Origin: Dipteris shenzhenensis
Lineage: Eukaryota
Length of the DNA stretch: 64,000 bases
Assembly (NCBI GenBank): GCA_047967505.1
Contig: CM106538.1
Direction: 5' to 3' (one strand)
The translations under genes were made by a program, and so were the position numbers. This document shows, piece by piece, positions 16,247 to 59,172 of this stretch (positions within the stretch are counted from its first letter, which is position 1; each line of letters begins with the position of its first letter). Below the pieces are notes generated by a model that was not told where the DNA came from, ran no database searches, and saw only the letters and a list, made by a program, of their open reading frames with translations.

Positions 16247-16248
16247 TT

Positions 16249-21867: not shown

Positions 21868-21884
21868 CCATTCTGCATGCCCTA

Positions 21885-26050: not shown

Positions 26051-26190
26051 ATTGACTACACATTGTGTGGTGCAAAAGAATTACAGCAGGAACGACTCGC
26101 ATACCCACTGTATTACGCACATGGCATCTCAACTCTGAAATCAAAATAATCCATAACCCGAGGACGGGTAATAAAATGGATCCGGGAGTA

Positions 26191-27457
26191 TGTTGACTCT
26201 GTGCCAACATGAACTTATGAAGAAAGAGAAGGTGATACAACTTTGTGATACAACTTTGTGTTACAACTTTGTGTTACAACTTCTAGACACAACTTTATGT
26301 TACGACTTTATGTAACAACTTTGTGTTACAAGTTTGTGTTACAACTTCTACATGAAGAGAGAGAATGTGTTATGACTTTGTGACACAACTTTGTGTTACA
26401 ACTTTGTGTAACAACTTTGTGATACAACTTTGTGACACAACTTTGTGTTACAACTTTGTGTAACAACTTTGTGTTACAACTTCTACATGTAGAGAGAGAA
26501 AGTGATACAACTTTGTGTTACGACGTTGTGACACAACTTTGTGTTACAACTTTGTGATACAACTTTGTGTTACAACTTTGTGATACGACTTTGTGTTACA
26601 TGCAGAGAGAGAAGCTCTCCAACTTGTATAAATACCCCATAATGGAATGAAGCCCACACTCTTGGGGCATTGTGTTGAGTCTACATTGGTATTCCAAGCA
26701 TTTGTCTCAAGTGTCCATGCTTCCTTGCACTGCACGTCCAAAAGCATGTCCTAACCTTGCAACCCTTCTCCCCTCTCCTCCAACCCTGCAACCCATCCTC
26801 TCCCTCTCCTCCTCCCTTCTCCCCCCTCCTCCTCCTCCTCCTCCTCCTCCCTCCTCCTCCCTCCTCCTCCTCCTCCTCCTCCTCCCTCCTCCTCCTCCTC
26901 CTCTCTCCTCCCTCTCCCTCCTCCTCTTCCCTCCTCCTCCTTCCTCCTCTCTCTCTTACTTCACCCATGCTCTTACACCTTCTTCCTCTCCCACTCCTAT
27001 GCTTTCCTAAACCCTTAAACTCAATGATCTACGAGGGAGACGAGTTCTCCACCATGTATTTTACTCTGAACCTTGGATCCTCCTCCTAACCCTGAACTCC
27101 TTCTAAACCTTGGAACCTCCTTCTGAACCCTGGAACTCTTTCTAACCCTGAACTCTTTCTAAACCCTGGAACCTCCTTCTGAACCCTTAAACTCCTCCTA
27201 AACCCTACAACCCCCAATGAAGGCGAAAGCCTTCATTACCCCAACAACAATGGTTTACGTGCCTTTTACACATGCTTGCATTATGTTTACTCACCACACT
27301 TAAGCCTACGTCTCTCACCGGAACACGACTCGAGGTCCTAAGCTACACATATACTACAACGACAATCCCAATATATCTGTAGGTGACAAAAAGCCTCGGA
27401 ACACTGCAACATAGAGAACCCAGCTCTTCCTACGGAAGCGGTAGGAAAGAGCCAACA
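26191..27457 (+). repeat. 3' LTR (1267 bp)
   Basis: By eye it differs from the 5' LTR by one CCT unit and about two substitutions. Confidence 0.97.
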
Positions 27458-27462: not shown

Positions 27463-30400
27463 CATTCTCCTATGATCACTGGAATACCCCTCCTATAATA
27501 TTAGGGTAAACAACTGTACCAAGGGAGAATGGTAGTGGTGCCAATCTCTTATTGGGCCCTAGAAAATGGCACTGAGAAGCCTAAACTCACATGCCATTCT
27601 TCTATGTTCCACCGGTGGAAAATGGCAATGGTGCCATTCTCTAAAACATGCACAAGGAATCCTAAACGCACATGTGCATTGGCACTTTTACCATTATCCT
27701 ACTACAGCCAATAAAATTAGTGGAATGTCAATCTATAGGTTTAGTTTGTCTAGATTACCACTAGTGGAGAATAGCAGTGATGCCAATCTCATGCAGGCAC
27801 CTACATAATGACACTAAGATCAACAAACTCACATGTGGATTGGAATCGGACACCATTCTCCTATGATCACTGGAATACCCCACCTAGAATAGTAGGGTAA
27901 ACATTTGTACAAGTGGAGAATGGCAGGGTGCCAATCTATTATTAGGCCCTAGAAAATGGCATTGAGAAGCCTAAACTCACATGTGCAAGCTTCTCAATGC
28001 CATTTTCTAGGGCCTAATAAGAGATTGGCACCACTGGAGAATGGATTTCTGTCAATCTCTGTGGAGAATGCCACCAGTGGAGAATGGCAGTGGTGCCAAT
28101 CTCATACCAAGACGTTAAAAATGGCACAAGGAATCCTAAACTCACATGTGCATTGGCACTTTTGCCATTATGCTACTGCAGCCAATAAAATTTGTGGACT
28201 GTCAATCTACAAGTTTAGTTTATCTAGATTGCCACCAGTGGAGAATTGAAGTGATGCCAATCTCATGCAGGCAACCACATAATGACACTGAGATCCTCAA
28301 ACTCACATGTGGATTGGAATCGGGCACCATTCTCCTATGATCCTTGGAATACCCCTCCTAGAATATTACGGTAAACATTTGTACAAGCGGAGAATGGCAG
28401 TGGTGCCAATCTCTTATTAGGCCCTAGAAAATGGCACTGTGAAGCCTAAACTCACATGTGCAGCCAATAAAATTAGTAGAATGTCAATCTATAGTTTAGT
28501 TTGTCTAGATTACCACTAGTGGAGAAGCCTAAACTCACATGTGCATTCTTCTATGTAGTGATCACCGTCTCCACTGTGTAGATATCATATGGAATTGTGT
28601 CAATCTCTATGGAGAATGGCAGTAGTGCCAATCTCATACTATGACCTGAAAACATGCACAAGGAATCCTAAACTCACATGTGCATCAGCACTACCACTAG
28701 TGGAGAATGGCAATGATGCCAATCTCATGCTGGCAACTACATAATGACAATGAGATCACCAAATTCACATGTGCATTGAAACTTTTGCCATTATCCTACT
28801 GCAGCCAATAAAATTAGTGGAATGTCAATCTACAGGTTTAGTTTGTCTTGATTACCACTAGTGGAGAATGGCAGTGATGCCAATCTCATGCTGGCAACTA
28901 CATAATGACACTGAGATCATCAAACTCACATGTGGAATGGAATCTGACACCACTCTCCTATGATCACTGGAATACCCCTCCTAGAATAGTACGGTAAACA
29001 TTTGTACAAGTGGAGAATGGCAGTGGTGCCAATCTCTTATTAGGCCTTAGAAAATGGCATTGAGAAGCCTAAACTCACATGTGCATTCTTCCATGTAGTG
29101 ATCACAGTCTCCGCTGTGTAGAGATCATATGGAATTGTGTCAATCTCTGTGGAGAATGCCACCAGTGGAGAATGGCAGTGGTGCCAATCTCACATGTGGA
29201 ATACCCCTATGATCCTTGGAATACCCCTCCTAGAATATTAGGGTAAACATTTGTACAAGTGGAGAATGTCAATGGTGCCAATCTCTTATTAGGCCCTAGA
29301 AAATTGCACTGTCAAGCCTAAACTCACATGTGCATCCAATAAAATAAGTGGAATGTTAATCTATAGGTTTAGTTTGTCTAGACTACCAATAGTGGAGAAA
29401 GGGAGTGATGCCAAACTCATGCTGGCACCTACATAATGACACTGAGATCATCAAACTCACATGTGGATTTGAATCGGACACCACTCTCCCATGATCACTG
29501 GAATACCCCTCCTAGAATAGTAGGGTAAACATCTGTACAAGTGGAGAATGGTAGTGGTGCCAATCTCTTATAAGGCCCTAAGAAATGGCATTGGGAAGCC
29601 TAAACTCACATGTGCATTCTTCTATGTAGTGATGACCTGAAAACATGCACAAGGAATCCTAAACTCACATGTGCATTGGCACTTTTGCCATTCTCTGCTA
29701 GTGGTAATGTGCATTCTTCTATGTAGTGATCACTGTCTCCGCTATGTAGAGATCATATAGAATTGTGTCAATCTCTGTGCAGAATGCCACCAATGGAGAA
29801 TGGTAGTGGTTCCAATCCCATACCATGACTTGAAAACATGCACAAGGAATCCTAAACTCACATGTGCATTGGCACTATTGCCATTATCCTACTGTAGCCA
29901 ATAAAATTAGTGGAATGTCAATCTATAGGTTTAGTTTGTCTAGATTACCACTAGCAGAGAATGGTAGTGATGCCAAACTGATGCTGGCCCTAAGAAATGG
30001 CATTGAGAATCATAAACTCACATGTGCATTCTTCTATGTACTAATCCCTGTCTCCGTTGTGTAGAGATCATATGGAATTGTATCAATCTCTTATTAGGCC
30101 CTGGAATGGCAATCTATAGGTTTAGTTTGTTTAGACTACCACTAGTGGAGAATGGCAGTGATGCCAAACTCATGCTGGCACCTACATAATGACACTAAGA
30201 TCATCAAACTCACATGTGGATTGGAATCGGACACCACTCTCCTATGATCACTGGAATACCCCTCCTAGAAAAGTAGGGTAAACATTTGTACAAGTGGAGA
30301 ATGGCAGTGGTGCCAATCTCTTATTAGGCCCTAAGAAATGGCATTGAGAAGCCTAAACTCACATGTGCATTCTTCTATGTATTGATCACTGTCTCCACTG

Positions 30401-33400
30401 TGTAAAGATCATATGGAATTGTGTCAATCTCTGTGAAGAATGCCACTAGTGGAGAATGGCAGTGGTGCCAATCTGATACCATGACCTGAAAACATGCACA
30501 AGGAATCCTAAACTCACATGTGCATTGGCACTTTTTCCATTATCCTACTGTAGCCAATAAAATTAGTGGAATGTCAATCTATAGGTTCAGCTTGTCTAGA
30601 TTACCACGAGCGGAGAATGGAAGTGATGCCAATATCATGCTTGCAACTACATAATGACACTTAGATCATCAAACTCACCTGTGGAATGGAATAGGACACC
30701 ACTCTCCTATGATCATTGGAATACCCCCCCTAGAATAGTAGGGTAAACATTTGTACAAGTGGAGAATGACATGTGCAGAGATCTTTTGGATTTGTGTCAA
30801 TCTCTATGGAGCATGCCACCAGTGCAAAATGGCAGTGGTGCCAATCTCATACCATGACGTGAAAACATGCACTTTTGCCATTATCCTACTGCAGCCAATA
30901 AAATTAGTGGAATGTCAATCTATAGGTTTAGTTTGTCTAGATTACCACTAGCAGAGAATGGCAGTGATGCCAAACTCATGCTGGCCCTAATAAATGGCAT
31001 TGGGAATCCTAAACTCACATGTGCATTCTTCTATGTTGATCACTGTCTCTGCTGTGTAGAGATCATGTGTAGAGATCATATGGAATTGTGTCAATCTCTT
31101 ATTAGGCCCTGGAATGTCAATCTATAGGTTTAGTTTGTTTAGACTACCACTAGTGGAGAATGGCAGTGATGCCAAACTCATGCTGGCACCTACATAATGA
31201 CACTGAGATCATCAAACTCAAATGTGGATTGGAATCGGACACCACTCTCTTATTATCACTGGAATACCCCTCCTAGAAGAGTATGGTAAACAATTGTACA
31301 AGTGGAGAATGGCAGTGGTGCCAATCTCTTATTAGGCCCTAAGAAATGGCATTGAGAAGCCTAAACTCACATGTGCATTCTTCTATGTAGTGATCACTGT
31401 CTCCGTTGTGTAGAGATCATATGGAATTGTGTCAATCTCTACGGAGAATGCCACCAGTGGAGAATGGAAGTGGTGCCAATCTTATACCATGACCTGAAAA
31501 CATGCACAAGGAATTCTAAACTCACATGTGCATTGGCACTTTTGCCATTATCCTACTACAGCCAATAAAATTAGTGGAATGTCAATCTATAGGTTCAGTT
31601 TGTCTAGATTACCACTAGCAGAGAATGGCAATGATGCCAATCTCATGCTGGCAACTACATAATGACACTGAGATCATGAAACTCACATGTGGAATGGAAT
31701 AGGACCCACTCTCCTATGATCACTGGAATACCCCTCCTAGAATAGTAGGGTAAACATTTGTACAAGTGGAGAATGGCAGTGGTGCCAATCTCTTATTAGG
31801 CCCTAAGAAATGGCATTGAGAAGCCTAAACTCACATGTGCAGAGATCATATGGATTTGTGTCAATATCTGTGGAGAATGCCACCAGTGGAGAATGGCAGT
31901 GGTGCCAATCTCATACCATGACCTGAAAACATGCACAAGGAATCCTAAACTCACATGTGCATTCTTCTATGTAGTGATCACTGTCTGTGCTATGTAGAGA
32001 TCATATGGAATTGTGTCAATCTCTGTGGAGAATGCCACCAGTGGAGAATGGAAGTGGTGCCAATCTCATACCATGACCTGAAAACATGTACAAGGAATCC
32101 TAAACTCACATGTGCATTCTTCTATGTAGTATCATTGTCTCCGCTATGTAGAGATCATATGGAATTGTGTCAATCTCTGTGTAGAATGCCACCAGTGGAG
32201 AATGGTAGTGGTTCCAAGCTCATACCTTGACCTGAAAACATGCACAAGGAATCCTAAACTCACATGTGCATTCTTCTATGTAGTGATCACTGTCTCTACT
32301 GTGTAGAGATCATATGGAATCCTAAACTCACATTTGGATTGGAATCGGACACCACTCTCCTATGATCACTGGAAAACCCCTCCTAGAATAGTAGGGTAAA
32401 CATTTGTACAAGTGGAGAAAGGCAGTGGTGCTAATCTCTTATTAGGCCCTAAGAAATGGCATTGAGAAGCCTAAACTCACATGTGCATTCTTCTATGTAG
32501 TGATCACTATCTCCGCTGTGTAGAGATCATATGGAATTGTGTCAATCTCTGTGGAGAATCCCACCAGTGGAGAATGGTAGTGGTGCCAATCTCATACCAT
32601 GACGTGAAAACATGCACAAGGAATCCTAAGCTCACATGTGCATTCTTCTATGTAGTGATCACTGTCTCCGCTGTGTAGAGATCATATGGAATTGTGTCAA
32701 TCTCTGAGATCATCAAACTCACATGTGGATTGGAATCGGACACCACTCTCCTATGATCACTAGAATACCCCTTGTAGAATAGTAGGGTAAACATTTGTAC
32801 AAGTGGAGAATGGTAGTGGTGCCAATCTCATACCATGACCTAAAAACTTGCACAAGGAATCCTAAACTCACATGTGCATTGGCACTTTTGCCATTATCCT
32901 ACTGCAGCCAATAAAATTAGTGGAATGTCAATCTATAGGTTTAGTTTGTCTAGATTAACACCAGTGGAGAATGGCAATGATGCCAATCTCATGCTGGCAA
33001 CTACATAATGACATTGAGATCATCAAACTCATATGTGGAATGGAATAGGACACCACTCTCCTATGATCATTGGAATACCCCTCCTAGAATAGTAGGGTAA
33101 ACATATGTACAACTGGAGAATGGCAATGGTGCCAATCTCTTATTAGGCCCTAAGAAATGGCATTGAGAAGCCTAAACTCACATGTGTAGAGATCATATGG
33201 ATTTGTGTCAATCTCTGTGGAGAATGCCACCAGTGGAGAATGGCAGTGGTGCCAATCTCATACCATGACCTGAAAACATGCACAAGGAATCCTAAACTCA
33301 CATGTGCATTCTTCTATGTAGTGATCAACTGTCTCTGCTGTGTAGAGATCATATGGAATTGTGTCAATCTCTGTGGAGAATGCCACCAATGGAGAATGGC

Positions 33401-36400
33401 AGTGGTACCAATCTCATATCATGACCTGAAAACATGCACAAGGAATCCTAAACTCACATGTGCATTCTTCTATGTAGTGATCACTGTCTCCGCTGTGTAG
33501 AGATCATATGGAATTGTGTCAATCTCTGATATCATCAAACTCACATGTGGATTCGAATCGGACACCACTCTCCTTTGATCACTGGAATACCCCTCCTAGA
33601 ATAGTAGGGTAAACGGTTGTACAAGTTGAGAATGGCAGTGGTGCCAATCTCTTATTAGGCCCTAAGAAATGGCATTGAGAAGCCTAAACTCACATGTGCA
33701 TTCTTCTATGTAGTGATCACTGTCTCCGCTATGTAGAGATCATATGGAATTGTGTCAATCTTTGTGGAGAATGCCACCAGTGGAGAATGGCAGTTGTGCC
33801 AATCTCATACCATGACCTGAAAGCATGCACAAGGAATCCTAAACTCACATGTGCATTTGCACTTTTGCCATTATCCTACTGTAGCCAATAAAATTAGTGG
33901 AATGTCAATCTATAGGTTTGTCTAGATTACCACTAGTGGAGAATGGCAGTGATGCCAATCTCATGCTAGCAACTACATAATGTCACTGAGATCATAAAAC
34001 TCACATGTGGAATGGAATCAAACAACACTCTCCTATGATCATTGGAATACCCCTCCTAGAATAGTAGGGTAAACATTTGTACAAGTGGAGAATGGCAGTG
34101 GTGCCAATCTCTTATTAGGCCCTAAGAAATGGCATTGAGAAGCCTAAACTCACATGTGCATTCTTCTATGTATTCTCCACAGAGATTGACACAAATCTCT
34201 GTGGAGAATGGCACTGGTGCCAATCTCATACCATGACCTGAAAACATGCACAAGGAATCCTAAAATCACATGTGCATTGGCACTTTTGCCATTATCCTAC
34301 TGCAGCCAATAAAATTAGTGGAATGTCAATCTATAGGTTCAGTTTGTCTAGATTACCACTAGCGGAGAATGGCAGTGATGCCCATCTCATGCTGGCAACT
34401 ACATAATTACACTGAGATCATCAAACTCACATGTGGAATGGAATAGGACACCACTCTCCTATGATCATTGGAATACCCCTCCTAGAATAGTAGGGTAAAC
34501 ATTTGTACAAGTGGAGAATGGCAATGGTGCCAATCTCTTCTTAGGCCCTAAGAAATGGCATTGAGAAGCCTAAACTCACATGTGCATTCTTGTATGTAGT
34601 GATTATTGTCTCCGATGTGTAGAGATCATATGGAATTGTGTCAATATCTGTGGAGAATGGTAGTGGTGCCAATCTCATACCATGACCTGAAAACATGCAC
34701 AAGGAATCCTAAAATCACATGTGCATTGGCACTTTTTCCATTATCCTACTGCAGCCAATAAAATTAGTGGAATGTCAATCTATAGGTTCAGTTTGTCTAG
34801 ATTACCACTAGCGGAGAATGGCAGTGATGCCAATATCATGCTGGCAACTACATAATTACACTGAGATCATCAAACTCACATGTGGAATGGAATAGTACAC
34901 CACTCTCCTATGATCATTGGAATACCCCTCTTAGAATAGTAGGGTAAACATTTGTACAAGTGGAGAATGGCAGTGGTGCCAATCTCTTATTAGGCCCTAA
35001 GAAATGGCATTGAGAAGTCTAAACTCACATGCGCAAAGATCATATGGATTTGTGTCAATCTCTGTGGAGAATGCCACCAGTGGAGAATGGCAGTGGTGCC
35101 AATCTCATACCATGACCTGAAAACATGCACAAGGAATCCTAAACTCACATGTGCATTCTTCTATGTAGTGATCACTGTCTCCGCTGTGTAGAGAGCATAT
35201 GGAATTGTGTCAATCTCTGTGGAGAATGCCACCAGTGGGGAATGGTAGTGGTGCCAATCTCATACAATGACCTAAAAACATGCACAAGGAATCCTAAACT
35301 CACATGTGCATTCTTCTATGTAGTGATCACTGTCTCCGTTGTGTAGAGATCATATGGAATTGTGTCAATCTCTGTGGAGAATGCCACCAGTGGAGAATGG
35401 TAGTGGTGCCAATCTCATACCATGACCTGAAAACATGCACAAGGAATCCTAAACTCACATGTGCATTCTTCTATGTAGTGATCACTGTCTCCGCTGTGTA
35501 GAGATCATATGGAATTGTGTCAATCTCTGTGGAGAATGCCACCAGTGGAGAATGGTAGTGGTGCCAATCTCATACCATGACCTGAAAACATGCACAAGGA
35601 ATCCTAAACTCACATGTGCATTCTTCTATGTAGTGATCACTCTCTCCGCTGTGTAGAGATCATATGGAATTGTGTCAATCTCTATGGAGAATGCCACCAG
35701 TGGAGAATGGTAGTGGTGCCAATATCATACCATGACCTGAAAACATGCACAAGGAATCCTAAACTCACATGTGCATTCTTCTATGTAGTGATCACTGTCT
35801 CCGCTGTGTAGCGATCATATGGAACTGTGGCAATCTCTGAGATCATCAAACTCACATGTGGAATGGAATCGAATACCACTCTCCTATGATCACTGGAATA
35901 CCCCTCCTAGAATAGTAGGGTAAACATTTGTACAAGTGGAGAACGGCAGTGGTGCCAATCTCTTATTAGGCCCTAAGAAATGGCATTGAGAATCCTAAAC
36001 TCACATGTGCATTCTTCTATATAGTGATCACTGTCTCCGCTGTGTAGAGATCATAGGGAATTGTGTCAATCTCTATGGAGAATGCCAATAAAATTAGACT
36101 ACCACTAGTGGGGAATGGCGGTGATGCCAATCTCATGCTGGCAATTATGTAATGACATTGAGATCATCAAACTCACATTTGGATTGGAATCGGACACCAC
36201 TCTCCTATGATCACTGGAGTACCCCTCCTAGACTAGTACGGTAAACATCAATCTATAGGTTTAGTTTGTCTAGATTACCACTAGCGGAGAATGGCAGTGA
36301 TGCCAAACTCATGCTGGCCCTAAGAAATGGCATTGAGAATCCTAAACTCACATGTGCATTCTTCTATGTAGTGATTACTATCTCCGGTGTGTAGAGATCA

Positions 36401-39400
36401 TATGGAATTGTTTCAATCTCTTATTAGGCCCTGGAATGTCAATCTATAGGTTTAGTTTGTCTAGACTACCACTAGTGGGGAATGGCAGTGATGCGAATCT
36501 CATGCTGGCAACTATATAATGACATTGAGATCATCAAACTCACATTTGGATTTGAATCGGACACCACTCTCCTATGATCACTGCAATACCATTCCTAGAA
36601 TATAGGGTAAGCATTTGGACAAGTGGAGAATGGCAGTGGTGCCAATCTCATAATAGGCCCTAGAAAATGGCATTGAGAAGCCTAAACTCACATGTGCATT
36701 CTTCTATGTAGTGATCACTGTCTCCATTGTGTAGAGATCATATGGAATTGTGTCAATCTCTGTGGAGAATGCCACTAGTAGAGAATGGCAGTGGTGCTAA
36801 TCTCATACCATGACCTGAAAACATGCACAAGGAATCCTAAACTCACATGTGCATTGGCACTTTTGCCATTATCCTACTGTAACCAATAAAATTAGTGGAA
36901 TGTCAATCTATAGGTTTAGTTTGTCTAGATTACCACTAGCAGAGAATGGTCGTGATGCAATCTCATGCTTGACCTAAGAAATGGCATTGAGAATCCTAAA
37001 CTCACATGTGCATTCTTCTATGTAGGGATCATTGTCTCCGCTATGTAGAGATCGTATGGAATTGTGTCAATCTCTCTATTAGGCCCTGGAATGTCAATCT
37101 ATAGGTTTAGTTTGTCGAGACTACCGCTAGTGGGGAATGGCACTAATGCCAATCTCATGATGGCAACTATATAATGACATTGAGATCATCAAACTCACAT
37201 TTGGATTGGAATCAGACACCACTCTCCTATGATCACTAGAATACCCCTCCTAGAATAGTAGGGTAAACATTTGTACAAGTGGAGAATGGCAGTAGTGCCA
37301 ATCTCTTATTAGGCCCTAATAAATGGCATTGAGAAACCTAAACTCACATGTGCATTCTTCTATGTAGTGATCACTGTCTCCACTGTGTAGAGATCATATG
37401 GAATTGTGTCAATCTCTGTGGAGAATGCCACCAATGGAGAATGGCAGTGGTGCCAATCTTATACCATGACTGAAAATATGCACAAGGAATCCTAAACTCA
37501 CATGTGCATTGGCACTTTTGCCATTATCCTAGTTTCATTCTCCGCTAGTGGTAATGTGCATTCTTCTATGTAGTGATCACTGTCTCCGATGTGTACAGAT
37601 CATGTGGAATTGTGTCAATCTCTGAGGAGAATGCCAACAGTGGAGAATGGATGCGGTGCCAATCTCATACCATGACCTGAAAACATGCACAAGGAATCCT
37701 AATCTCACATGTGCATTCTTCTATGTAGTGATCACTGTCTCCGCTATGTAGAGATCATATGGAATTGTGTCAATCTCTGTGTAGAATGCCACCAATGGAG
37801 AATGGTGGTGGTGCCAATCTCATACCATGAGCTGAAAACATGCACAAGGAATCCTAAACTCACATGTGCATTCTTCTATGTAGTGATCAGTGTCTCCGAT
37901 GTGTAGAGATCATATGGAATTGTGTCAATCTCTGAGATCATCAAACTCACATGTGGAATGGAATAGGACACCACTCTCCTATGATCACTGGAACCCCATT
38001 AGAATAGTAGGGTAAACATTTGTACAAGTGGAGAATGGCAGTGGTGCCAATCTCTTATTAGGCCCTAAGAAATGGCATTGAGAACCCTAAACTCACATGT
38101 GCAGAGATCATATGGATTTGTGTCAATCTCTGTGGAGGAGAATGGCAGTGGTGCCAATCTCATATCATGACCTGAAAACATGCATAAAGAATCCTAAACT
38201 CAAATGTGTATTCTTCTATGTAGTGATCAGTCTCTCTGCTGTGTAGAGATCATATGGAATTGTGTCAATCTCTGTGTAGAATGCCACTAGTGGAGAATGG
38301 TAGTGGTGCCAATCTCATACCATGACCTGAAAACATGCACAAGGAATCCTAAACTCACATGTGCATTCTTCTATGTAGTGATCACTGTCTCCGTTGTGTA
38401 GAGATCATATGGAATTGTGTCAATCTCTGAGATCATCAAACTCACATGTGGAATGGAATAGGACACCACTCTCCTATGATCACTGGAACCCCTCCTAGAA
38501 TAGTAGGGTAAACATTTGTACAAGTAGAGAATGGCAGTGGTGCAAATCTCTTATTAGGCCCTAAGAAATGGCATTGAGAACCCTAAACTCACATGTGCAG
38601 AGATCATATGGATTTGTGTCAATCTCTATGGAGGAGAATGGCGGTGGTGCCAATCTCATACCATGACCTGAAAACATACACAAGGAATCCTAAACTCAAA
38701 TGTGCATTCTTCTATGTAGTCATCACTATCTCCACTATGTAGAGATCATACGGAATTGTGTCAATCTCTCTGGAGAATGCCACCAGTGGAGAATGGCAGT
38801 GGTGCCAATCTCATACCATGACCTAAAAACATGCACAAGGAATCCTAAACTCACATTTGCATTGGCACTTTTTCCATTATCCTACTGCAGCCAATAAAAT
38901 TAGTGGAATGTCAATCTATAGGTTTAGTTTGTCTAGATTACCACTAGCAGAGAATGGCAGTGATGCCAATCTCATGCTGGCCCTAATAAATGGCATTTGA
39001 GAAGCCTAAACTCACATATGCATTCTTCTATGTAGTGATCACTGTCTCCGTTGTGTAGATATCATATGGAATTTTGTCAATCTCTGTGGATAATGGCAGT
39101 GGTGCCAATCTCATACCATGACCTGAAAACATGCACAAGGAATTCTAAACTCACATGTGCATTGGCACTTTTGCTATTATCGTACTGCAGCCAATAAAAT
39201 TAGTGGAATGTCTAGACTACCACTAGTGGAGAATGGCAGTGATGCCAATCTCATGCTGGAACCTACATAATCTTCCTGAGATCATCAAACTCACAAGTGG
39301 ATTGGAATTGGACACCACTCTCCTAGAATACCCGAGGGTAAACATTTGTACAAGTAGAGAATGGCAGTGGTGCTAGTCTCTTATTAGGCCCTAGAAAATG

Positions 39401-39435
39401 GCATTGAGAAGCCTAAACTCACATGTGCATTCTTA
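27463..39435 (+). repeat. ~12 kb complex satellite of three ~150-160 bp monomers in shuffled order (starts ~14850, before the nested LTR element)
   Basis: Each monomer ends in AAACTCACATGTG and contains GGAGAATGGCAGT(G/A)(G/A)TGCCAATCTC. Exact 155 bp spacing at 35149/35304/35459/35614. Confidence 0.95.
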
Positions 39436-39938
39436 TTAGCATCAGTGCCCTTCTCTAGAAGGTCAGGTGAGAAAACTCTCATGTGATAACCTTCATATAA
39501 GGAGAATGGCACTGGTGCCATTCTCTGATTCTCTACAATCCATGTGATGAATCGAACTTCTACCATTCTCCTTAACATCATGGAGGATGGCACCAATGGC
39601 ATTATCCTCAAACTCTCATGGAGGATGGCACTTGTGCCATTCTAAACAAACTCACAATCCATGTGTTCAATGGCATTTGTGACACTCTTCTAACATCATA
39701 TTATGTTGGAGAATGGCACGAATACCATTCTTTATTATAACCATCTTAACTTTGGTATTGTATATATTTTCTTACTGTGTTGGTGTAGTTTTTCATAATG
39801 CATATATAAGTTGCTTCGCCTTGGTTATTTTGTTAATGGAAGTTGCATTGTGGTTGTAATATTTCCTACTACAGTTATGATTTTCTATTATACATTTCAT
39901 TGTGTCCTTAGTTCTTTTGTTAACAGAACATTGCAAGA

Positions 39939-42916
39939 ATGGCTAGCAAGGGAAAGAGAAAGGTTCGAGAGGTGTCAGTTTATGATGGAGTTAGCTCTGG
40001 AAGAGGATGGTTTTTGGATATATACAATAACGAGCTCCAAAAACTCCATAAAGTGCATTGTTTTGTGAACATCCAAGGAACAACTTTTGAAGATGTTGGA
40101 CAAGTTAAAGAGATGGAGGATACCGAGAAAGACAACGTTCCTTGTCTCAAAATTCATACATTGGGAGGCAATGTGTATCAATTGGATCCTGCTTGTTTTG
40201 ATCATGCGAGGATGAATGCTAATGGGGAGGACACGATGATATCTAGGGGTTGGATTAATGAGCCAGAAAATTATACCAACCAACAGATATTAGAAAGCTT
40301 TGATTTGGTAACAAAAGGGATAAAGCAAGATATAAAAAAGAGTAGAAAAGTTTCGAAAGAACCAAGAAAAGTGATGTTGAGGGATCAAGCTCTCAAGTGT
40401 CTCAAAACACATTGAAAGAGAAGGCTAGAGAGACCGGTGAGGAGGAAACAATAGGTAAGAAGGAAATAAGGTCAGATGGAAAAACAAGCATTGGGGATAA
40501 ACTGGAGGCTAAAGACAAAGAGACAACTTTAGGAGGAAAATAGGGAGGTATGGGAATAGTCACTGATGGAACTGGAAGTGGAGGTGATGCAACGGGGAGT
40601 AGTGAGACACATGTAACAGGACAAATCATCTGAAGCAACTATCATCCTGTATAAGAAAATCCAGCCAGATGTTGACTTTAAGGCACTACAAAAGAAATTG
40701 GAAAGGAAGGACACAAGTATGACAGGCTTGATGGAGTACATAGAGTACTTCCCATTTGGTTTGGAGTTTGAGGTGTTGATTCCAGTGATGAACTGCTTTA
40801 GAGCACCAAGCCAATATGTGTACAGGACATTGACCCTCAGCTATGTCAGTGACTTGGTCAAGAGTTTTGCAATGAATGCACGACCTCCTGCAACATGTGC
40901 ATATCTTATGCCTTACCACACAGGCACAAATACTCCGATGTGCAAGGAAGAGATAAAGGTGGAAAATTTAAAGGAGTATAATTATTGGATTCTCGTAGGG
41001 CAACATTCGATTTATGCTGCAAGGATGTTTATAACTAAAGCACATGGAGAAGCCTTCAATCAACAAAAAGGTTTCTATACACGGAGGAAGGCAAGAATTA
41101 TTGTGTCAATGCACCAGTTGAAGCAAGTTGTAACATATCATCAATGGCCAACATGGAGGCACAGACCGTTTTGAAAAATCAACCATATATCGATATCTTA
41201 CAACACCTAAGGGCACAGTGGATTGCATTCGGATGACCAAAGAAACTAGCCCAAGGCCTTGTCAAAGGGCATAAAGATCGACAAAGTTGGGATGTGAGTA
41301 ATAAACTTTGTTTTGTATGCATTTTTATTTCAAGAATGTTTATGGCTTTGTAAAAGAAATGATAGTAGTGTCAATTCCCTGATGTGAGAATGGCACTAGT
41401 GCCATTCTTCTAGTTACCAAGTCATGCTTTTGACATGGTAATGGGAGAATCGCACTAGTGACATTATTATCTCTATTACATGATTTGGATTAGAAGAATG
41501 TCTAAGATGATTTTGATTTTTTTATATAGAATTCTATAGGAGTTGCAAGCGTATCGATGGGCGCAAAATTTGCTACCAAGGACACACACATGGTTACATA
41601 TGATGATGACATCTACGAACAATGGATTAGGATTTTGACATTGGTGAAGCAGGGTGATCTTGAGGGTCAAAATCCCACAATAACATATATGAGGTGTCTG
41701 CTAGGATTGGAAGACGAAGATGTATGTGCACTTCAAGCAGAGATTGAGTCTAAAGAAATAGTCTTAGTCAAGTCAAGCAAAGACAAGGACTCCATTGAAA
41801 TGTCTCAACGGGCAATGGAGATTAAGCATGATAGAGCCCTGAAAGAAGCGCTCATCAAGGAGTTCAACTCACGTCACCATTTGCCCCAACATCAAACATG
41901 GGATGCCCTTGCAACTTACTTTAAAATTGATCCAATTGTTTATCAGAGCTTCAAGGGTTCATGTGAGTCATGGGTCAAAGAGAAGCTACAAGTTGGCAAG
42001 TCCACACCTGATTTCCCAGAAGCCGCGTCAATCTATGTTGATTGGGTGATTAGTTCAATAGAGGGTAACAAGTCTACATCACAGTCTTGTTTTCCTTGGA
42101 CAATTATTCAAGTGAACATGGAGATGGAGAGGGAGAGCTTTCTAACATGTCACTCCAAGGCTTGACACCTCAGAGGGATCTGCCAAAGGCATGTGTTGGG
42201 ATAAGGATGCCTTCAAGAAGTTGCTCTGTGGCTTGATGGAGACCGTTGCCACTCCGTCACAGAATGTATTGCTATCATTTATGACAATGATAGAGATGGT
42301 AAATCTCAAGGAAGCTATGATAGAGGCTCGATTTTGGCATAGAAGGTTTGTGGGTGTTATCCATGAATCGGATAGTGCACAAAAGGGTTTGTGTGAGACC
42401 TTCTGTTTTTTGTCATTTATCAGCTCACATGATGGGTTTGATGGATTTGAGCACATGTTAGAAAACACAAGGCCATACACAATAATTGAGGACAATATTC
42501 TTTATTCTGATGAGGACGATGAGTATGAAAAAGAGGCGGTTGTGAAGCATGGCATCATCAAGGAGTGCATCAGGTGCTATTGTAGTAGGGAACATGAAGT
42601 TGTTGTTGACGTCTTTACTAATGGATGTGTGGCATTACAAGCATTGTCAAGCAAAAGAAAAGTGATCTCACTAGTGAAGACATCCCAACAGGCGATAGAG
42701 GTCGAGGCTATGTGTGTGGCACATGCATCAAATAATCCCCATATTAAGATTTGGTCTAGCATTGAGAGGCCTCTTGAGACACATAGAGCTGATTCACCTA
42801 TCGATGAAGGAATTAAAGAGGGTGAGCATCACATTGAAGACTTGCGACCTTTAACTGAAGCAGATCTTAATGCTATCCCAAAGATTACATTGGAAGATTT
42901 GGAGCAAGGTCTTTAG
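39939..42916 (+). pseudogene. Cargo gene 1: ParB/Srx-like domain plus degenerate N6/N4 DNA-methylase-like C-terminus; intron ~41294-41529
   Basis: YWILVGQHSIYAA resembles the ParB GxHR motif. The GTGAGT donor and TATATAG acceptor give an in-frame WD|NSIG join. C-terminal YEKE..IKECIRCYCSREHEVVVDVFTNGCVALQALSSKRKVISL resembles beta-class MTase motif X/I. Contains stops and frameshifts. Confidence 0.55.
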
Positions 42917-43735
42917 CTACTCATTTATGCCTTGTGTATTTAGTTTCAAAATAATATGACTTTTAAGGATTTTCTCGATTGCACATACTCTCATTATATT
43001 AAAGAGATTAAACATTAGGTATGATAAAATTGTGTGACATAATGACATGGGGAATGGTACTAGTGTCATTCTCCCTATGTCGGGTTATATGTAAGAGGTA
43101 CTATTAACATTTTATGTGACCTCATATGGAAAATGGCACTAGTGCCATTCTCTCTTTGTGGTTATGTAGAAATGGTAATACTGTTATGTTCCTTTCTTGA
43201 ATCTATGTTAGTTGAAAGCATTACAGAGATTAAAAATTGTATAGTATTAACTATGCTACCAAAGTTTGGATTTGGATGCTTTCCACAAATCTATTGGACC
43301 AAAGTAATACAATATCTATGCTTTTAGATCATGCATTGTACATTTCTTTTGGGACATGGGGGGAGGCACTAGTAGTATTCTCTCCTCCCAATGAGGATAT
43401 AGAGAAAGGCACTAGTGGCATTCTCCATAACCTTATATGTAAAATGGCACTAGCACCACCCCAAGAGAAGAATGGCACTAGTGCCATTTTCTCTATGAGT
43501 TCAGAGAGAAAGGTTGCACTATTTGCACTCAATTGCCCTTTAGAGAGATTGGCACCAGTGCCATTCCCCAAAAAGATAATGGAATCAGTGAACGGCGATG
43601 AATAATGTTCGTACTTTATTTTTATTTATTAGTTTCATATGATTTTGTGCTTCGACATTGTTGAATACACTCTAAAGAATCAAAATATTTCTATATTCCT
43701 CAACTTCCACAGGGACCAATGATGTATGGAAGGAT

Positions 43736-45002
43736 ATGGAGACATCAAATGTAGAGGACAACATACCACCCAAAATGGGGACTATCAATTACGCGATGGA
43801 TACAGGAGGTATAGAAGAAAACATAACCCAAAAAATGGAGAAAATTGCAAGGAATATCATGAATCCTATACTTTTAGAAGAGAACATGGATGAACGTATT
43901 GTCTCAACATTGGGGACAAGACTAGATAATCTTATTGTTGTTGCAAACATGTATGAAAACATAGCACCTGACAATTTGGATGAGTCAGAAGCCAGCAACT
44001 TCAAGGAGAATTTGGATCTATATCCACATACAATTTCTTTGGATATGCCACGAGATTAACAATCATATTAGACTTGAATGGCCTGTTATTAAGTCGCTGC
44101 CTATTCAAGTCTCCAATACATCTGTCTATTATGCATGGCAAAAATAGTTATATGGTTGTTCTCGTCCTGGGTGCATAGAATTTCTTAACATCTTGCTACA
44201 AAGATTTAATGTAGGTATCTGGTCAACTGCGATGGAGTATAACGTACTTGATATGGTAGGAAAGCTGCAAAATTATGCAAATGAGAGCCTCCCTTTCTTT
44301 GTTATATGGTCTCAGCAAGGATGCTACACTTACAGTAAGACGAGGATAAATAGGCCTGACAAGGTTGGTGTTGAGGCAATTTTCAAACCCTTAGCAAAAA
44401 TCTCAAAGGCATTTGGATGTGATGCTAGAAGGACAATCCTTGTTGATGACTCCCCATACAAGGCTTGCATTAGCCCTCCATCAAATTGCATATTTCCTTC
44501 AACGTTTGATGTACAAGACAAGGATGATAATATTCTACTGAGAGAGTTGATGCCGTACTTACTAGAACTCGATGAAACTAAAGATGTGCGAAGCATGATT
44601 GAGACAAATCGGTATGGACAATTACCTGTGATGGAGGGGCATAAGGATTTCAACCTTGTCCAGAAAGTAATTGATGAATGGAGGGAGGAAAATCATGCAT
44701 GGTCAAGAATGGGATATAAAACAAGAAATCTTCCTCTTGCAAATCAACTAAGAGAGAGGGATGTAGGTGGTAATACAGAACCAAAGGGTGTACACCCTAG
44801 GGCAACCCATGGTGGTGATGGCCAGGTGCCTAAACTCAATGCATCCCAAATAAGACTTTTAAGGAATGCTCCGCAACTCTCTAGCATGAATGCTATGCAA
44901 GTTTCTCAATTGGCTATAGACCTAGGGTACAAAGGTCGCTATATCAAGAAATACATTGCTAAGGGCTACATAAACCAACTACAGAATGCGTATTTTTCAT
45001 GA
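43736..45002 (+). pseudogene. Cargo gene 2: FCP1-homology (NIF/HAD) phosphatase domain protein, frameshifted
   Basis: LTIILDLNGLL (DLNG at 44071-44082), RPGCIEFL, FNVGIWSTA, IFKPL, RTILVDDSPYK...NCIFP. Confidence 0.85.
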
Positions 45003-45093
45003 AGGTACATATGTCAAAGTGTTTTTTAATTTTATCTCAAGTCTATATAACTGTTGTTGCAACTAATTGAATTTGTCTTTTGTGATGTAGATA

Positions 45094-45617
45094 GATATAC
45101 GTTCAAATCAAGCTTGAATAGGTACATACCAGAACGAGATCCATTTGGACCACCAAAGTTACCTGTCCCTATCAACGAAGTGTTCTGGATAAAAAATGTG
45201 GCTTTCGAGGTGCATGAGTCAACCATTACAGGTGCTAGCTTGGGCTTGTTTGTGCATGGCTCCATCAAGAGAGGGACTACTATTCTCCATTATGGAGGTG
45301 ACAAGTACTCCTACAGAGACTGGAAGGAATTATGTAGAGTTCATCCAAGGCTAAAGAAGTACTCTATCCAAGAGGACCCTACTATCCCTATGAAGGATAT
45401 GGTGCATATTGTTGGTGATGTTCAATATGGCAAGATTTATTAACAGCAATAGAAATACCAATGTAAAGCCAAATGTTTGTTATGTATTTTCTCCTAATGT
45501 TCCACCTTGGTATGACCCATGATGAACATAGATATTGCAGAATATTGTCACATTTGTATTGAATCCATAGATGATATACATACAGGAGAGGAGCTATTTG
45601 CAAACTATGAGTTTTGA
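45094..45617 (+). pseudogene. Cargo gene 3: minimal SET domain, frameshifted
   Basis: EVHESTITGASLGLFVHGSIKRGTTILHYGG, then in shifted frames RFINS...KPNV and ICIESIDDIHTGEELFANYEF*. Confidence 0.85.
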
Positions 45618-51436: not shown

Positions 51437-52552
51437 TGTTGACTCTGTGCCAGCATGAACTTATGAAGAAAGAGAAGGTGTTACAACTTTGTGTTACAAC
51501 TTCTAGACACAACTTTATGTTACGACTTTGTGTAACAACTTTGTGTTGCAAGTTTGTGTTACAAGTTTATGTTACGACTTTGTGTAACAACTTTGTGTAA
51601 CAACTTTGTGTTACATCTTCTACATGAAGAGAGAGAATGTGTTACGACTTTGTGACACAACTTTGTGTTACAACTTTGTGATACGACTTTGTGTTACATG
51701 CAGAGAGGGAAGCTCTCCAACTTGTATAAATACCCCATAATGGAATGAAGCCCACACTCTTGGGGCATTGTGTTGAGTCTACATTGGTATTCCAAGCATT
51801 TGTCTCAAGTGTCCATGCTTCCTTGCACTGCACGTCCAAAAGCATGTCCTAACCTTGCAACCCTTCTCCCCTCTCCTCCAACCCTGCAACCCATCCTCTC
51901 CCTCTCCTCCTCCCTTCTCCCTCCTCCTCCTCCTCCTCCTCCTCCCTCCTCCTCCCTCCTCCTCCTCCTCCTCCTCCTCCCTCCTCCTCCTCCTCCTCTC
52001 TCCTCCCTCTCCCTCCTCCTCTTCCCTCCTCCTCCTTCCTCCTCTCTCTCTTACTTCACCCATGCTCTTACACCTTCTTCCTCTCCCACTCCTATGCTTT
52101 CCTAAACCCTTAAACTCAATGATCTACGAGGGAGACGAGTTCTCCACCATGTACTCTACTCTGAACCTTGGATCCTCCTCCTAACCCTGAACTCCTTCTA
52201 AACCTTGGAACCTCCTTCTGAACCTTGGAACTCTTTCTAACCCTGAACTCTTTCTAAACCCTGGAACCTCCTTCTGAACCCTTAAACTCCTCCTAAACCC
52301 TACAACCCCCAATGAAGGCGAAAGCCTTCATTACCCCAACAACAATGGTTTACGTGCCTTTTACACATGCTTGCATTATGTTTACTCACCACACTTAAGC
52401 CTACGTCTCTCACCGGAACACGACTCGAGGTCCTAAGCTACATATATACTACAACGACAATTCCAATATATCTGTAGGTGACAAAAAGCCTCGGAACCCT
52501 GCAACATAGAATACCCAGCTCTTCCTACGAAAGCGGTAGGAAAGAGCCAACA
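51437..52552 (+). repeat. 5' LTR of copy 2 (shorter 13 bp repeat array)
   Basis: TGTTGACTCT...GAGCCAACA, with PBS TGGCACCGTTGCCGGGGA at 52555-52572. Confidence 0.95.
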
Positions 52553-55479
52553 TTTGGCACCGTTGCCGGGGAGACTAGCGTCTCAAGTAGCAAGTAAACA
52601 TGCGTAGGTAGGTGTAAAAGCCACATGATGTACAATTAGGCTAGGTAGTGGACACGGTTGCGTAGAGCTTTCAATTACGATCATTTTACCTTTTTACAGA
52701 AAGGCAAACCGAGCTCTCCATAAAGAGTTATGGCTCGGGAAGAGTTTAGGGTTAAACCCTAAACCTAAACCCTAAACCTAAAATCCAAACCTATAAAAAC
52801 CTACTCCACCCCCCCCTCATTCTTCATCTCACACTTTTTGCCTCCATTCTCTTCCTCCTTCCGAGCCCCACGCAAGACACTCCTCCCTCTCCATCGACCG
52901 CCCCCTTACTCCTATCCTCGCCATGTAAGTGACATCGAACCCTTCTCGCAGCAATGACCTAGCCTTCCACCCACCGTCCATTGTTCCGCGACAATCCCGT
53001 TCCATCGAGAAAGACTTGGAAAGCGTCAGGTAACTACTTCGCCTTGCTTTTCAATTTCCGTCTTTCAGTTTTTTTGTTGTTCTTTTACCCCTCCCCCTCC
53101 ACCACCACCTCCCTCTCCACCACCACCTCCCCCTCTCCACCACCTCCCCTCTCCCCCTCCCCCTTCATCTTCCCCCTCCCCCTCTCCCCCTCCCCCTCTC
53201 CACCACCACCTCCCCCCTCCCCCTCACCTCCCCCTCTCCCCCTCCCCCCTCCACTACCACCTTCCCCTCACCTCCCCCTCTCCCCCTCCCCCTACCACCT
53301 CCCCTCTCCCCCTCCACTACCACCTCCCCTCTCCCCCTCCCCCTCTCCCCCTCCCCCTACCACCTCCCCTCTCCCCCTCCACTACCACCTCCCCTCCTTC
53401 CCCCCCCCTTCATCCCCACCTCCCCCTCACCTCCCCCTCTCCCCCTCCCCCTACCACCTCCCCTCTCCCCCTCCACTACCACCTCCCCTCCTTTCCCCCC
53501 CCTTCATCCCCACCTCCCCCTCACCTCCCCCTCTCCCCCTCCCCCTCCACTACCACCTTCCCCTCACCTCCCCCTCTCCCCCTCCCCCTACCACCTCCCC
53601 TCTCCCCCTCCACTACCACCTCCCCTCCTTCCCCCCCCCTTCATCCCCACCTCCCCCTCACCTCCCCCTCTCCCCCTCCCCCTCCACTACCACCTCCCTC
53701 TCTCCCCCTCCCCCTCCACCACCACCTCCCCCCTCCCCCTCCCCCTCTCCCACCACCTCCCCCCTCCCCCTCTCCCCCTCCCCCTCCACCACCCCTTCCC
53801 CCCTCCCCCTCCGCCCTCTCTCTCCCACTCTCTCCTCTCTCCCCCTCATTCTCTTCCCCTTTTCCCCTCTCTCTCTCTCTTCTCTCTCTCCCCTCTCTCC
53901 TCTCTCCCCTCTCTCTCCCACCCCCTCTCTCACACCCTCTCTCCTCTCTCTCCCTTACCCCCATCGCCCCCCCATCCCCCTCTCTCCCCCTCCCCTTTAC
54001 CCCCTCGCCCCCCACCCCCCTCCCTCCCCTTTACCCCCTCGCCCCCCACACCCCTCTCTCCCCCTTACCCCCATCGCCCCCCCATCCCCCTTACCTCCCT
54101 CCCGCGGCGGCGCTCCGCAGAGCCGCCGCCGCCCCGCCCCTATCACGCTCCCCCGCCCGCGCCTACCCTGCCCCTATAACACCCCCCGCCCGCGCCTACC
54201 CCGCCCGCGGCGCCGCCGCCCCGCGCCCCACGCGCGCAGCCCGCGCCGCCCACCGCCCCGCCCGCGCCGTCCACCGGCCCGCGGCGCGGTGCCACCCCCG
54301 CGCGCCCGCACTCACCCCGCCCCCTCTCCTCTCTCAACCCCCGCGGCGGCACACGCAGCACCGCCGCCCCGCGCCCCTCCAACCCTCGCCACCCCGCCCT
54401 ACCCTGCGCTGCCCCTACGCGCCCCACCCTACCCCCCCCGCTACCCCTACGCACCCCACCCTACCCCCCCTGCTACCCCGACACCCCCGCCCGCCCCCGC
54501 GCTCCCCCCGCCACCCCCTCGCACCCCCCTCACACCCCCTGCGCGACCCCCTCCCCCACCCCCTGCGCTCTCCCCTTCGCCCCCCCCTCACACCCCCTGC
54601 GCGACCCCCTCCCCCTCCCCCTGCGCTCTCCCCTCCACACCCCCCTCACACCCCCTGCGCGACTCCCTCCCCCTCCCCCGCCACCCCCCTCGCGCCCCCC
54701 TCACACCCCCCCCGCGCGCCAGCCCCCCTCAGCAGCGCCGCCGTCGGGCAGCCCCCCTCAGCACCTCCAAAAAAAAAAAAAAGTAAACCTAACCTAAACC
54801 TACCACTAGGGTTAGTTTAACCTTAGTTCGGTTAACATTAACTAGAGTTAGGTTAGGTTAGGGTAGGTTAGTTAACCCAAAGCTCGTTAGTTAACCTCAG
54901 TGTTAGGTTAGTTCACCCTCAGGTAGGTTAGACTAACTCTTCAGTTAGTACCTAACTACAGTTAGTTAACCTCCCAGTTATAGTAACTGGGAGGACCTCA
55001 GTTAGTTAGTCTAACTAGAGTCACTTGGTTTCAACCCCTCGGTTGGACTTAAAGTCCCTTCACACCACCATTAGGACCTCCCCAAACGCCAAATTTACCC
55101 CTCCTTTAACCCCTCGAAACTCATCCGTTTGGGACCCAAATTGAACCCCGTTTGAACCCAGATTTCACACACGGAAACACCACGTTACGGGGTATTTTTC
55201 CAACCCATTGCACACCATTTCGGCATCCCTAGCACACGTTAGTTCGCGCCCCCTTGTGGGCCTCATTTTGCATTAATTCACTCATATTTTCACGCCGCGA
55301 CCTCCGATTAACGATCCGTCTGCACCGGCACATTTCCCTACACACGTAGGACAATCCTAGGCACATTATTAACACGACGGTCCCTACACATACTAACATC
55401 ACTCTAACTCTCCTAACGACACCACCTCCACGCCCGCCCTTGGGGTAGCGATCCCCTTAGCCAATCACGCACCATCTGC

Positions 55480-55684
55480 ATGCAGTTACGTTCCGGCCAA
55501 CGACTTCGACTCCAACGCTCGCCCAATCCGCAACTTACTCCACTGCAACAACCGCCCCCGCCAATCCTCTACCCCGAATCCCCCCTGAGGTTCAACAACT
55601 TCCTTTAACTCCTCTACGCCCCAACATGGCTGGACGCCGTCCTGAGCATGATGGGGACATCGAGCTCGATGCCGAGGCTAACAA
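55480..55684 (+). pseudogene. gag: Truncated gag 5' end
   Basis: Matches 18897-~19102, then homology stops. Confidence 0.88.
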
Positions 55685-56071
55685 AAGACCCTTTCTAGCT
55701 TCTTTAGACCATATCTTTTCTTGAGGTATTATATACGCTATACAATGCCTAGAAATGTCATCTTGTTATTTGCAGCATATGCTACACAATGCCTAAAAAT
55801 GCCTAGAAATGGCATCTTGTTGTTTGCGGCATCTAGTGGTGGATTAGTTATTAGAAGGACAATGCTAAAACCTCCCCAAGTTGTCATGGATGTGGTTGTA
55901 CATAGGTGTTAGCATGGCATTGGAGCATAGGTCCTAAATGCAGTTATATTATAGTCATACATGCAGTGATGCAATAAGCTATGTGCATATATAATTTATA
56001 TTATTTTCATGTATTAGATGTTGATTTTATGATGAAGAGATGTAGAAGACGGGAAGATGTGGCTACTCGAT

Positions 56072-59081: not shown

Positions 59082-59115
<34 letters not shown>

Positions 59116-59172
59116 TCTCTCCCACACACACACAGAAAGGTCATACAGGCATGCCAATCAATGTAATGATCA

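Follow-up and report, generated by a model that had tools for sequence, protein, structure and literature searches.

In a 64,000-nt stretch of the Dipteris shenzhenensis genome (contig CM106538.1 of assembly GCA_047967505.1), hereafter called the window, a single locus on the + strand spanning approximately positions 39939 to 45002 is probably a disrupted member of a fern gene family in which the proteins would combine a ParB-like domain, a catalytically dead N6/N4 methylase fold, and a phosphatase-like domain. In this explanation, which we hold as a whole with moderate confidence, the first two domains were derived from a phage fusion and now make up a noncatalytic DNA or chromatin module, and the copy present in the window is a recently decayed pseudogene that is itself without function. 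The domain order of the intact protein would be a PH/SANTA-like N-terminal domain, a lysine-rich linker, a ParB_N-like domain, a conserved helical domain, a circularly permuted beta-class N6/N4 methylase fold, an acidic linker, a NIF/FCP1-type domain, and a helical tail. Given GT-AG introns at 41294–41529 and 42909–43712, the second of which is inferred, the intact form is predicted to contain approximately 1,350 residues.

Relatives of the locus are numerous. A phmmer search of 1.84 billion representatives, using the open reading frame (ORF) at 42146–42916 as the query, recovered 22 proteins at E ≤ 1e-3, nine of them at E ≤ 1e-10, and the best match was P0001 (E 2e-22, 31% identity). The first 334 residues of another relative, P0011, yielded 23 further relatives of the N-terminal half in a word-index search. 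Two word-index searches gave no match to the window ORFs. All 14 of the named family members are hypothetical proteins of Adiantum nelumboides and the remainder are unnamed contigs, and so far this multigene family is named only from a fern. A PHROGs profile search of 21 relatives returned no match, and neither a metagenome scan with the window ORF nor a scan with the F-plasmid methylase confirmed a relative. No description of such a family was found in full-text literature searches; the supplements and figures of PMC4738411, which arrange clades by taxon, lay outside these searches and could bear on its novelty.

Two relatives, P0011 (990 residues) and P0007 (857 residues), carry an N-terminal domain, a domain containing the string YWILSGQH, the helical domain, the methylase-like domain, the acidic linker, NIF, and a C-terminal tail whose end coincides precisely with that of window ORF 44148–45002. 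This domain order indicates that the pieces in the window belong to one protein. Indeed, stop-to-stop ORFs and tblastn searches with relatives define three exons that are colinear but jump frame repeatedly, and the window holds one copy of the gene. In each of four related genomic contigs (L016–L019), an N-terminal/ParB-like exon is followed, after approximately 110 to 150 nt, by a helical/methylase-like exon, and the position of intron 1 is conserved in 4/4 contigs. Because the same two-exon layout recurs in all four, the fusion and the first intron are not artifacts of gene prediction. The fusion order in one polypeptide is thus seen in P0011, in the window gene model, and in the four contigs, with the ParB part weakly supported in this comparison. 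Pairwise identity within the family is only 23 to 31% (alignment A1), and many positions of the helical domain are invariant in 13/13 rows. The first-pass annotation had described a ParB-methylase fusion at 40698–42916. That span lies inside the gene and covers only its middle part; the ParB-like and methylase-like pair was recognized, whereas the downstream NIF/FCP1-type domain and the PH/SANTA-like start were missed.

A model of P0001, folded with the 24 rows of alignment A1 (a shallow alignment), reached a pLDDT of 78.3 and a pTM of 0.71. Its strong structural match to N6/N4 methylases bears out the earlier proposal of a methylase-fold derivative. With Foldseek, 41 PDB matches reached E ≤ 1e-3; of those listed, ranks 1 to 36 are type III Mod subunits or beta-class methylases of the N6-adenine/N4-cytosine kind, and MT-A70 enzymes rank behind them. 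The top match was CcrM (6pbd_B, E 3.4e-6), followed by TTHA0409, M1.HpyAVI (TM 0.70 on the target), rotifer N4CMT, M.RsrI, M.PvuII, MboIIA, and M.BceJIV. Among the 17 matches at E ≤ 1e-3 in BFVD were Pandoravirus N4 methylases. Rank 2 of that search was a 494-residue phage "ParB/Sulfiredoxin" protein (446 aligned columns), and ranks 1 and 5 were unnamed proteins of 507 and 458 residues aligned over 414 and 446 columns. The predicted model has a seven-stranded methylase fold with the beta-class permutation, wherein the motif IV strand precedes the segment containing motif X and motif I. A strand at residues 204 to 210 (IGLCVLD) leads into STEG at the site of the beta-class DPPY, and a strand at 360 to 364 (VIDVF) leads into SNGF at the site of the beta-class xGSG.

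Sequence profile alignment converges on part of the same region. When compared with the F-plasmid N6_N4 methylase, hhalign selected the motif X and motif I segment (46 columns, E 0.023), and the fern core aligned with the 13 phage fusions described below over the same segment (48–49 columns, E 0.0038–0.0069). The match originally drawn by eye to KP..LI....VLDPF.GSG...AA....R..IG therefore goes beyond chance, since it was picked twice (E 0.023 and E 0.0038). Similarity in the ESM Atlas between the methylase-like ORF and phage N6_N4_Mtase clusters (0.89) serves as a lead only.

The residues on which catalysis depends are absent. The catalytic motif IV, (D/N/S)PP(Y/F), is found in 0/14 rows, a count that leaves out the misaligned row P0018, and every row instead reads [LI]D followed by [STAL][TAMI]x. 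Motif I, FxGxG, is found in 0/22 rows; all read Dx[FY]xxG, and the nearest approaches are P0016 (FSGG) and P0006 (FNGG). Neither [DNS]PP[YFWH] nor F.G.G occurs in any + frame of 39900–45100, which confirms the first reading of FTNG in place of FxGxG and of a missing DPPY. The question raised at that time, whether intact copies keep (D/S)PP(Y/F) and FxGxG, is answered in the negative by these same rows and by a near-identical intact copy that reads LCVLDTSEG at motif IV. Because the catalytic motifs are missing from all relatives, the fold is, judged by these residues, catalytically dead across the family and not just in the window copy. The family is under constraint even so, with W411 invariant in 18/18 rows and D363, G368, K343, and D210 largely or fully retained, as detailed below. 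Together with the missing motifs, this constraint is most simply read as a fold that was kept after catalysis was lost. Residual binding of S-adenosylmethionine (SAM) would be possible. It had been proposed at first that the gene was either decayed or repurposed; both apply, as the family-wide motif loss points to repurposing and the window copy is also a pseudogene.

The ParB-like assignment comes from the position of two short motifs and from structural neighbors. Chromosomal ParB proteins carry the motif GERRxRA. In the window, VGQHS (40995–41009, + strand, frame 0, in the context NYWILVGQHSIYAAR) occupies the site of GH(G/Q)R in phage fusions, and ISSMANMEAQ (from 41135) occupies the site of A(D/L)N. 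The arginine of the GxxR helix is missing, with SGQHS or SGQHF in the family and VGQHS in the window. The best local hhalign match in this part, ILSGQHSIMAARAFL against the phage GHGR helix, is weak (E 0.19–0.33). A model of relative P0035 was poor (pLDDT 53.3, pTM 0.30) and gave no Foldseek match at E ≤ 1e-3. In residues 244 to 390 of this low-confidence model, every listed structural neighbor is nonetheless a ParB N-domain (ranks 2 to 7, including 6sdk 5.5, Caulobacter ParB 5.5, PadC 5.3, and Noc 5.2), and three rows of a Foldseek-independent search fall on the same residues, namely PadC (5.2), Pnob8 ParB-N (4.9), and KorB (4.2). The ESM Atlas again supplied only a lead: the ParB-like ORF matched fungal hypothetical clusters at 0.95, and in one of these 14% of the members carry DUF3723. 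A full-text search found no literature link between DUF3723 and ParB. The strings VGQHS, ISSMAN (41135–41152), LRAQWIAFG followed by TGA (41207–41236), and FTNG, on which the first-pass annotation relied, are all on the + strand; ISSMAN and LRAQWIAFG share frame 2 and are separated from VGQHS by a single frameshift.

The third domain is recognized by sequence. NIF (PF03031) matches window ORF 44148–45002 at E 1.9e-14 and 54.1 bits, against a cut-off of 21.8, and is the sole Pfam profile match in the gene. The relatives P0007 and P0045 score 55 and 55.6 bits, respectively, and among the 22 phmmer relatives NIF occurs in three (P0007, P0011, and, under the cut-off, P0010). The catalytic motif I of NIF/FCP1-like enzymes is DxDx(T/V). 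At this site the window reads ILDLNG (44065–44082), with the first aspartate alone kept, and the Adiantum proteins P0007 and P0045 read ILSLCG, whereas the DD(S/A)P motif of the domain is retained. As a separate observation, the C-terminal tail at 44860–44999 (LSSMNAMQVSQLAIDLGYKGRYIKKYIAKGYINQL), which is conserved in P0007 and P0011, resembles by eye an SAP/HeH-type helix-extended-helix DNA-binding motif.

Among known systems, the closest counterparts to the ParB-like and methylase-like pair are phage fusions. Our comparison set comprised 13 ParB_N-N6_N4_Mtase fusions (e.g., XTK83804.1 from Blautia phage NatCom_27009), and Pfam confirmed both domains in the four that were checked. All 13 keep GH(G/Q)R, TDPPYN, HPTxKP, and LDPFxGSGST, and two fusion genes that were fetched adjoin a terminase. 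ParB-terminase loci with such methylases are described in the text of PMC4738411. The phage and fern proteins share the order ParB-like domain, helical linker, and beta-class methylase fold, their motif X and motif I segments align, and the phage fusions rank among the top viral matches by structure. They differ in that the phage fusions are 397 to 503 residues long, Pfam-positive for both domains, and intact in GH(G/Q)R, TDPPYN, and LDPFxGSGST, whereas the fern proteins, at approximately 1,350 residues, have introns, additional PH/SANTA-like and NIF domains, and a more extended helical domain, and retain none of the three motifs. A tblastn search of 50,697 phage records with P0011 gave one chance match (E 6). 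Since domain order and fold are the same and the phage fusions count among the best structural matches from viruses, we suggest that the pair would descend from phage or prophage ParB_N-N6_N4_Mtase fusions of ParB-terminase loci. In the plant lineage, the pair would then have lost catalysis and become a reader or scaffold that binds DNA or chromatin and possibly still SAM. Through this module, the phosphatase-like domain joined to it would be brought to chromatin or to a phosphoprotein, for example the RNA polymerase II tail. If the predicted models are a guide, the family protein is likely to bind DNA or chromatin without methylating DNA.

Other comparisons place the family near several groups. 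It shares the fold of beta-class DNA methylases (CcrM 6pbd, TTHA0409 2zie, M.RsrI 1eg2, M.PvuII 1boo, M1.HpyAVI 5hek, and rotifer N4CMT 8s9o) at identities of 8 to 14%, but the fern proteins are without (D/N/S)PP(Y/F), FxGxG, or a Pfam match. The CTP-binding N-domains of ParB, Noc, KorB, and PadC carry an arginine in GxxR that is serine or phenylalanine in the fern family (GQHS/GQHF), in which there is no Pfam ParB_N match and no helix-turn-helix or centromere-binding part was identified. With FCP1/SCP-type phosphatases, a group that includes plant CTD-phosphatase-like proteins, the family shares a Pfam match well over the cut-off and DD(S/A)P, but motif I, instead of DxDx(T/V), reads DLNG in the window and SLCG in Adiantum. 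We know of no NIF phosphatase fused to a ParB-like and methylase-like module. DNMT3L is an inactive methylase paralogue that is used as a scaffold or reader. A fold that stays constrained while catalytic or substrate-binding residues are replaced is likewise found in METTL14 and in the methylase domain of the DIRS1 retrotransposon, as treated in the text of PMC4738411. These three proteins belong to the MT-A70, PCIF1-like, and C5 classes, and none is a beta-class fold fused to ParB-like and NIF domains. By its predicted structure, the fern family is a derivative with the fold of N6_N4_Mtase and, putatively, that of ParB_N and not a member of either, because the defining sequence tests of both failed.

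The state of the window copy was assessed against contigs of three public runs, X1, X2, and X3, the last of which may be an RNA run. The X1 sequence, which may be a paralogue, an allele, or from a close species, is approximately 98% identical to the window (29 differing letters in 1,451 positions and 27 in 1,350). Two stop codons and six frameshifting indels interrupt the window copy, and all eight lesions are absent from the X1 contigs (Table 1). The six indels fit every frame change exactly, from 0 to 2 to 0 to 2 in exon 1, from 1 to 2 in exon 2, and from 2 to 1 to 0 in exon 3. At the fifth lesion, a stop codon, fern relatives have Cys or Ser. At the sixth, the 26 letters present in X1 read GQLPISLCV in frame before LDTSEG (PIGLCVLD in relatives), which restores the strand-4 segment, still without PP(Y/F). 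An alternative joint in X3, from 41995 to 42104, was rejected as an intron; its ends are GC..AA and it occurs in an 80-nt contig. Across 39900–45050, the window has A/T where X1 has G/C at 35 sites and the reverse at 11. The 23 listed G/C-to-A/T sites fall in CG (9), CHG (7), and CHH (7) contexts, and both stop codons of the window copy belong to the same C-to-T class. This A/T bias and these contexts are what one would expect if methylated cytosines had been deaminated in a duplicate that was silenced. The window copy would accordingly be such a duplicate, eroding via C-to-T changes.

Table 1. Features of the window copy and of the palindromic repeat, in window coordinates
Feature	Coordinates	Strand	Evidence
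Exon 1: N-terminal beta-rich PH/SANTA-like domain, Lys-rich linker, ParB-like domain; frame broken four times in window copy	39939–41293	+	
ParB_N-like domain	40755–41180	+	
Intron 1, GT..AG, phase 0; two copies of palindromic repeat GAATGGCACTAGTGCCATTC inside	41294–41529	+	Reading frames and splice sites
Exon 2: conserved helical domain, then methylase-like domain	41530–42908	+	tblastn of P0001/P0007; alignment A1
Beta-class N6/N4 methylase-like fold; would-be motif IV LDTSEG at 42161–42178, motif I remnant VDVFTNG at 42605–42625	42076–42769	+	
Intron 2 (inferred), phase 1; at least 5 palindromic repeat copies inside	42909–43712	+	Frames and GT/AG
Exon 3: acidic linker, NIF/FCP1-type HAD phosphatase domain, C-terminal helical tail, stop TGA at 45000–45002	43713–45002	+	Pfam PF03031; tblastn of P0007 residues 578–854
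Lesion 1: one base missing, frame 0 to 2	behind 40355	+	Extra A in X1, X2, X3
Lesion 2: in-frame TAG	40541–40543	+	X1 has C at 40541 (CAG)
Lesion 3: 8 bases missing, frame 2 to 0	behind 40622	+	8 extra letters in X1, X3
Lesion 4: 2 extra bases, frame 0 to 2; ParB-like domain split between ARIIV and NAPVE	41102–41103	+	X1 2 letters shorter
Lesion 5: in-frame TGA (the stop within AFG-stop-P)	41234–41236	+	X1, X2 have C at 41234 (CGA), CG context
Lesion 6: 26 bases missing, frame 1 to 2; beta-strand ahead of would-be motif IV lost	42159–42160	+	26 extra letters in X1
Lesion 7: 2 extra bases, frame 2 to 1, just ahead of NIF domain	44052–44053	+	X1, X2 2 letters shorter
Lesion 8: 2 extra bases, frame 1 to 0, within NIF domain	44160–44161	+	2 letters fewer in X1 at 44160, in X2 at 44162
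Palindrome GAATGGCACTAGTGCCATTC stretches	8236–10682, 14125–14779, 27620–39730, 41388–41466 (intron 1), 43052–43566 (intron 2)		

Several results weigh against the explanation we favor. Pfam N6_N4_Mtase (PF01555) matched 0/8 window ORFs (E ≤ 1) and 0/22 relatives (E ≤ 0.01), although the same library scored the F-plasmid methylase at 140 bits and phage fusions at 95 to 100 bits. Pfam ParB_N (PF02195) matched 0/8 window ORFs (E ≤ 1), 0/22 relatives (E ≤ 0.01), and 0/18 members of alignment A2 (E ≤ 5). The absence of methylase and ParB profile matches is the outcome that the first-pass annotation had named as grounds for abandoning its proposal, and at the level of sequence it is what was found. 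An hmmsearch of PDB sequences with family profiles A1 and A2 returned nothing relevant. The suggested phage descent draws on fold and domain order rather than on a tree. Moreover, since motif I of the NIF domain reads DLNG in the window copy and SLCG in P0007 and P0045, the phosphatase-like domain may also be inactive, which would weaken the step in which a phosphatase is recruited. Finally, transposon fragments adjoin several of the family's gene models, a circumstance that leaves room for an origin in a mobile element.

The main rival explanation is unlikely in our estimate. The family could be a cargo or accessory gene of an unrecognized fern mobile element, with the module serving the element rather than the host, for instance in copy maintenance or evasion of silencing, and this is compatible with the domain reading given above. 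Its copies are many, with at least 14 gene models in deeply diverged subfamilies from one fern genome, although subfamilies at 23 to 31% identity with a conserved core in one genome would fit an old host family equally well. An intact copy of approximately 98% identity exists in public data beside the decayed window copy. Some models are chimeric: Pfam searches of the 22 relatives found two with retroelement fragments under the cut-off, and the transposon pieces include RT_RNaseH_2 in P0002, SH3_Tf2-1 in P0006, and Dimer_Tnp_hAT in P0043, all below or near Pfam cut-offs. Chimeric models of this kind are, however, expected in transposon-rich assemblies. The window copy, with its methylation-type decay, lies amid long terminal repeat (LTR) elements and satellite DNA. 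Ty3-type LTR element copies occupy approximately 14970–27108 and 51437–64000, a partial Ty3 pol lies at 46.8 to 48.6 kb, and a satellite with a period near 155 bp, built from a 20-nt palindrome (variant GAATGGCAGTGGTGCCAATC), extends over approximately 27.5 to 39.7 kb upstream of the gene. Against a mobile origin, no transposase, integrase, or terminal repeat could be linked to the gene, the neighboring Ty3 fragment is a separate partial element, and the surrounding inverted repeats are only the genome-wide palindrome.

That 20-nt perfect palindrome, GAATGGCACTAGTGCCATTC, has 55 matches in the window at three or fewer mismatches, against an expectation of 0. Its presence throughout both introns and the upstream satellite led us to consider it as a parS-like site for the ParB-like protein, an idea that was rejected, as its matches spread far from the gene and 0/4 related genomic contigs carry it. 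This absence from the four fern contigs indicates a lineage-specific repeat that is not part of the gene family.

Returning to the proposed dead methylase fold, a second rival holds that the domain is still an active amino-methyltransferase with an unconventional active site, which we regard as very improbable. The fold is complete, and several positions are kept: the strand-4 aspartate (D210) in 14/15 rows, the aspartate and one glycine of motif I (D363 and G368) in 22/22, and the lysine corresponding to motif X (K343) in 20/23. Standing against activity are the loss of the Pro-Pro-aromatic element of motif IV and of the FxGxG loop from every row counted above, and the former motif is what positions the target amino group in amino-methyltransferases. 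In addition, an acidic residue after strand 2 is found only in LVE[SN] subfamilies, and the window lineage, which reads LVKT, is without it. Least probable of all, and highly so, is a generic Rossmann-like fold or prediction artifact with no specific tie to N6/N4 methylases or ParB, a possibility that draws on the shallow folding alignments (24 and 18 rows) and on the negative outcome of every sequence-profile search for either domain, set against the near-uniform beta-class and ParB N-domain neighbors described above.

Further features of the window lie apart from the gene. The shared segments of the two Ty3-type LTR copies are 96 to 100% identical, and the second copy is without approximately 3 kb of the gag-protease region, as judged from shared-segment coordinates. 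Both contain, between LTR and gag, a GC-rich, C-skewed stretch of 8- to 34-nt tandem units (GC 0.64 and skew −0.61 at 16–18 kb; GC 0.58–0.59 at 52–56 kb). A 516-residue open frame at 5028–6575 (− strand) matches Pfam DUF7869 (E 2e-45) and adjoins a Ty3 gag-pol fragment at 2005–4079 (+ strand). A leucine-rich-repeat open frame at 13175–13648 (+ strand; LRR_8, E 1.8e-12) is an LRR gene fragment between repeat arrays. Directly 3′ of the gene, the region 45051–45522 (+ strand; ORF 45051–45443) appeared SET-like by eye (GASLGLFVHGSIKRGTTILHYGG, then ..ARFINSN.. in another frame), and this impression is unsupported, with no Pfam or PDB sequence match.

According to the text of PMC4738411, N6A methylases are scarce in land plants. 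If the structural predictions hold, a land-plant lineage does contain an N6/N4 fold of the beta class, bacterial or phage in type, which is invisible to Pfam and annotated only as "hypothetical protein", and the family would account for a set of unexplained fern gene models. On present evidence, reports of N6-methyladenine or N4-methylcytosine in ferns are probably not creditable to such genes. The fusion, degenerate yet conserved, makes testable both an apparent gene transfer from phage or bacteria to ferns and the manner in which dead enzymes turn into readers. As a distinctly speculative extension, which we consider a long shot, ferns might have domesticated and expanded a phage ParB-methylase gene into chromatin proteins that read DNA sequence or base modification, perhaps sense SAM, and bring a CTD-type phosphatase module to particular loci. 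If true, this would mean that a land-plant chromatin pathway was built from a DNA-packaging enzyme of a bacterial virus.

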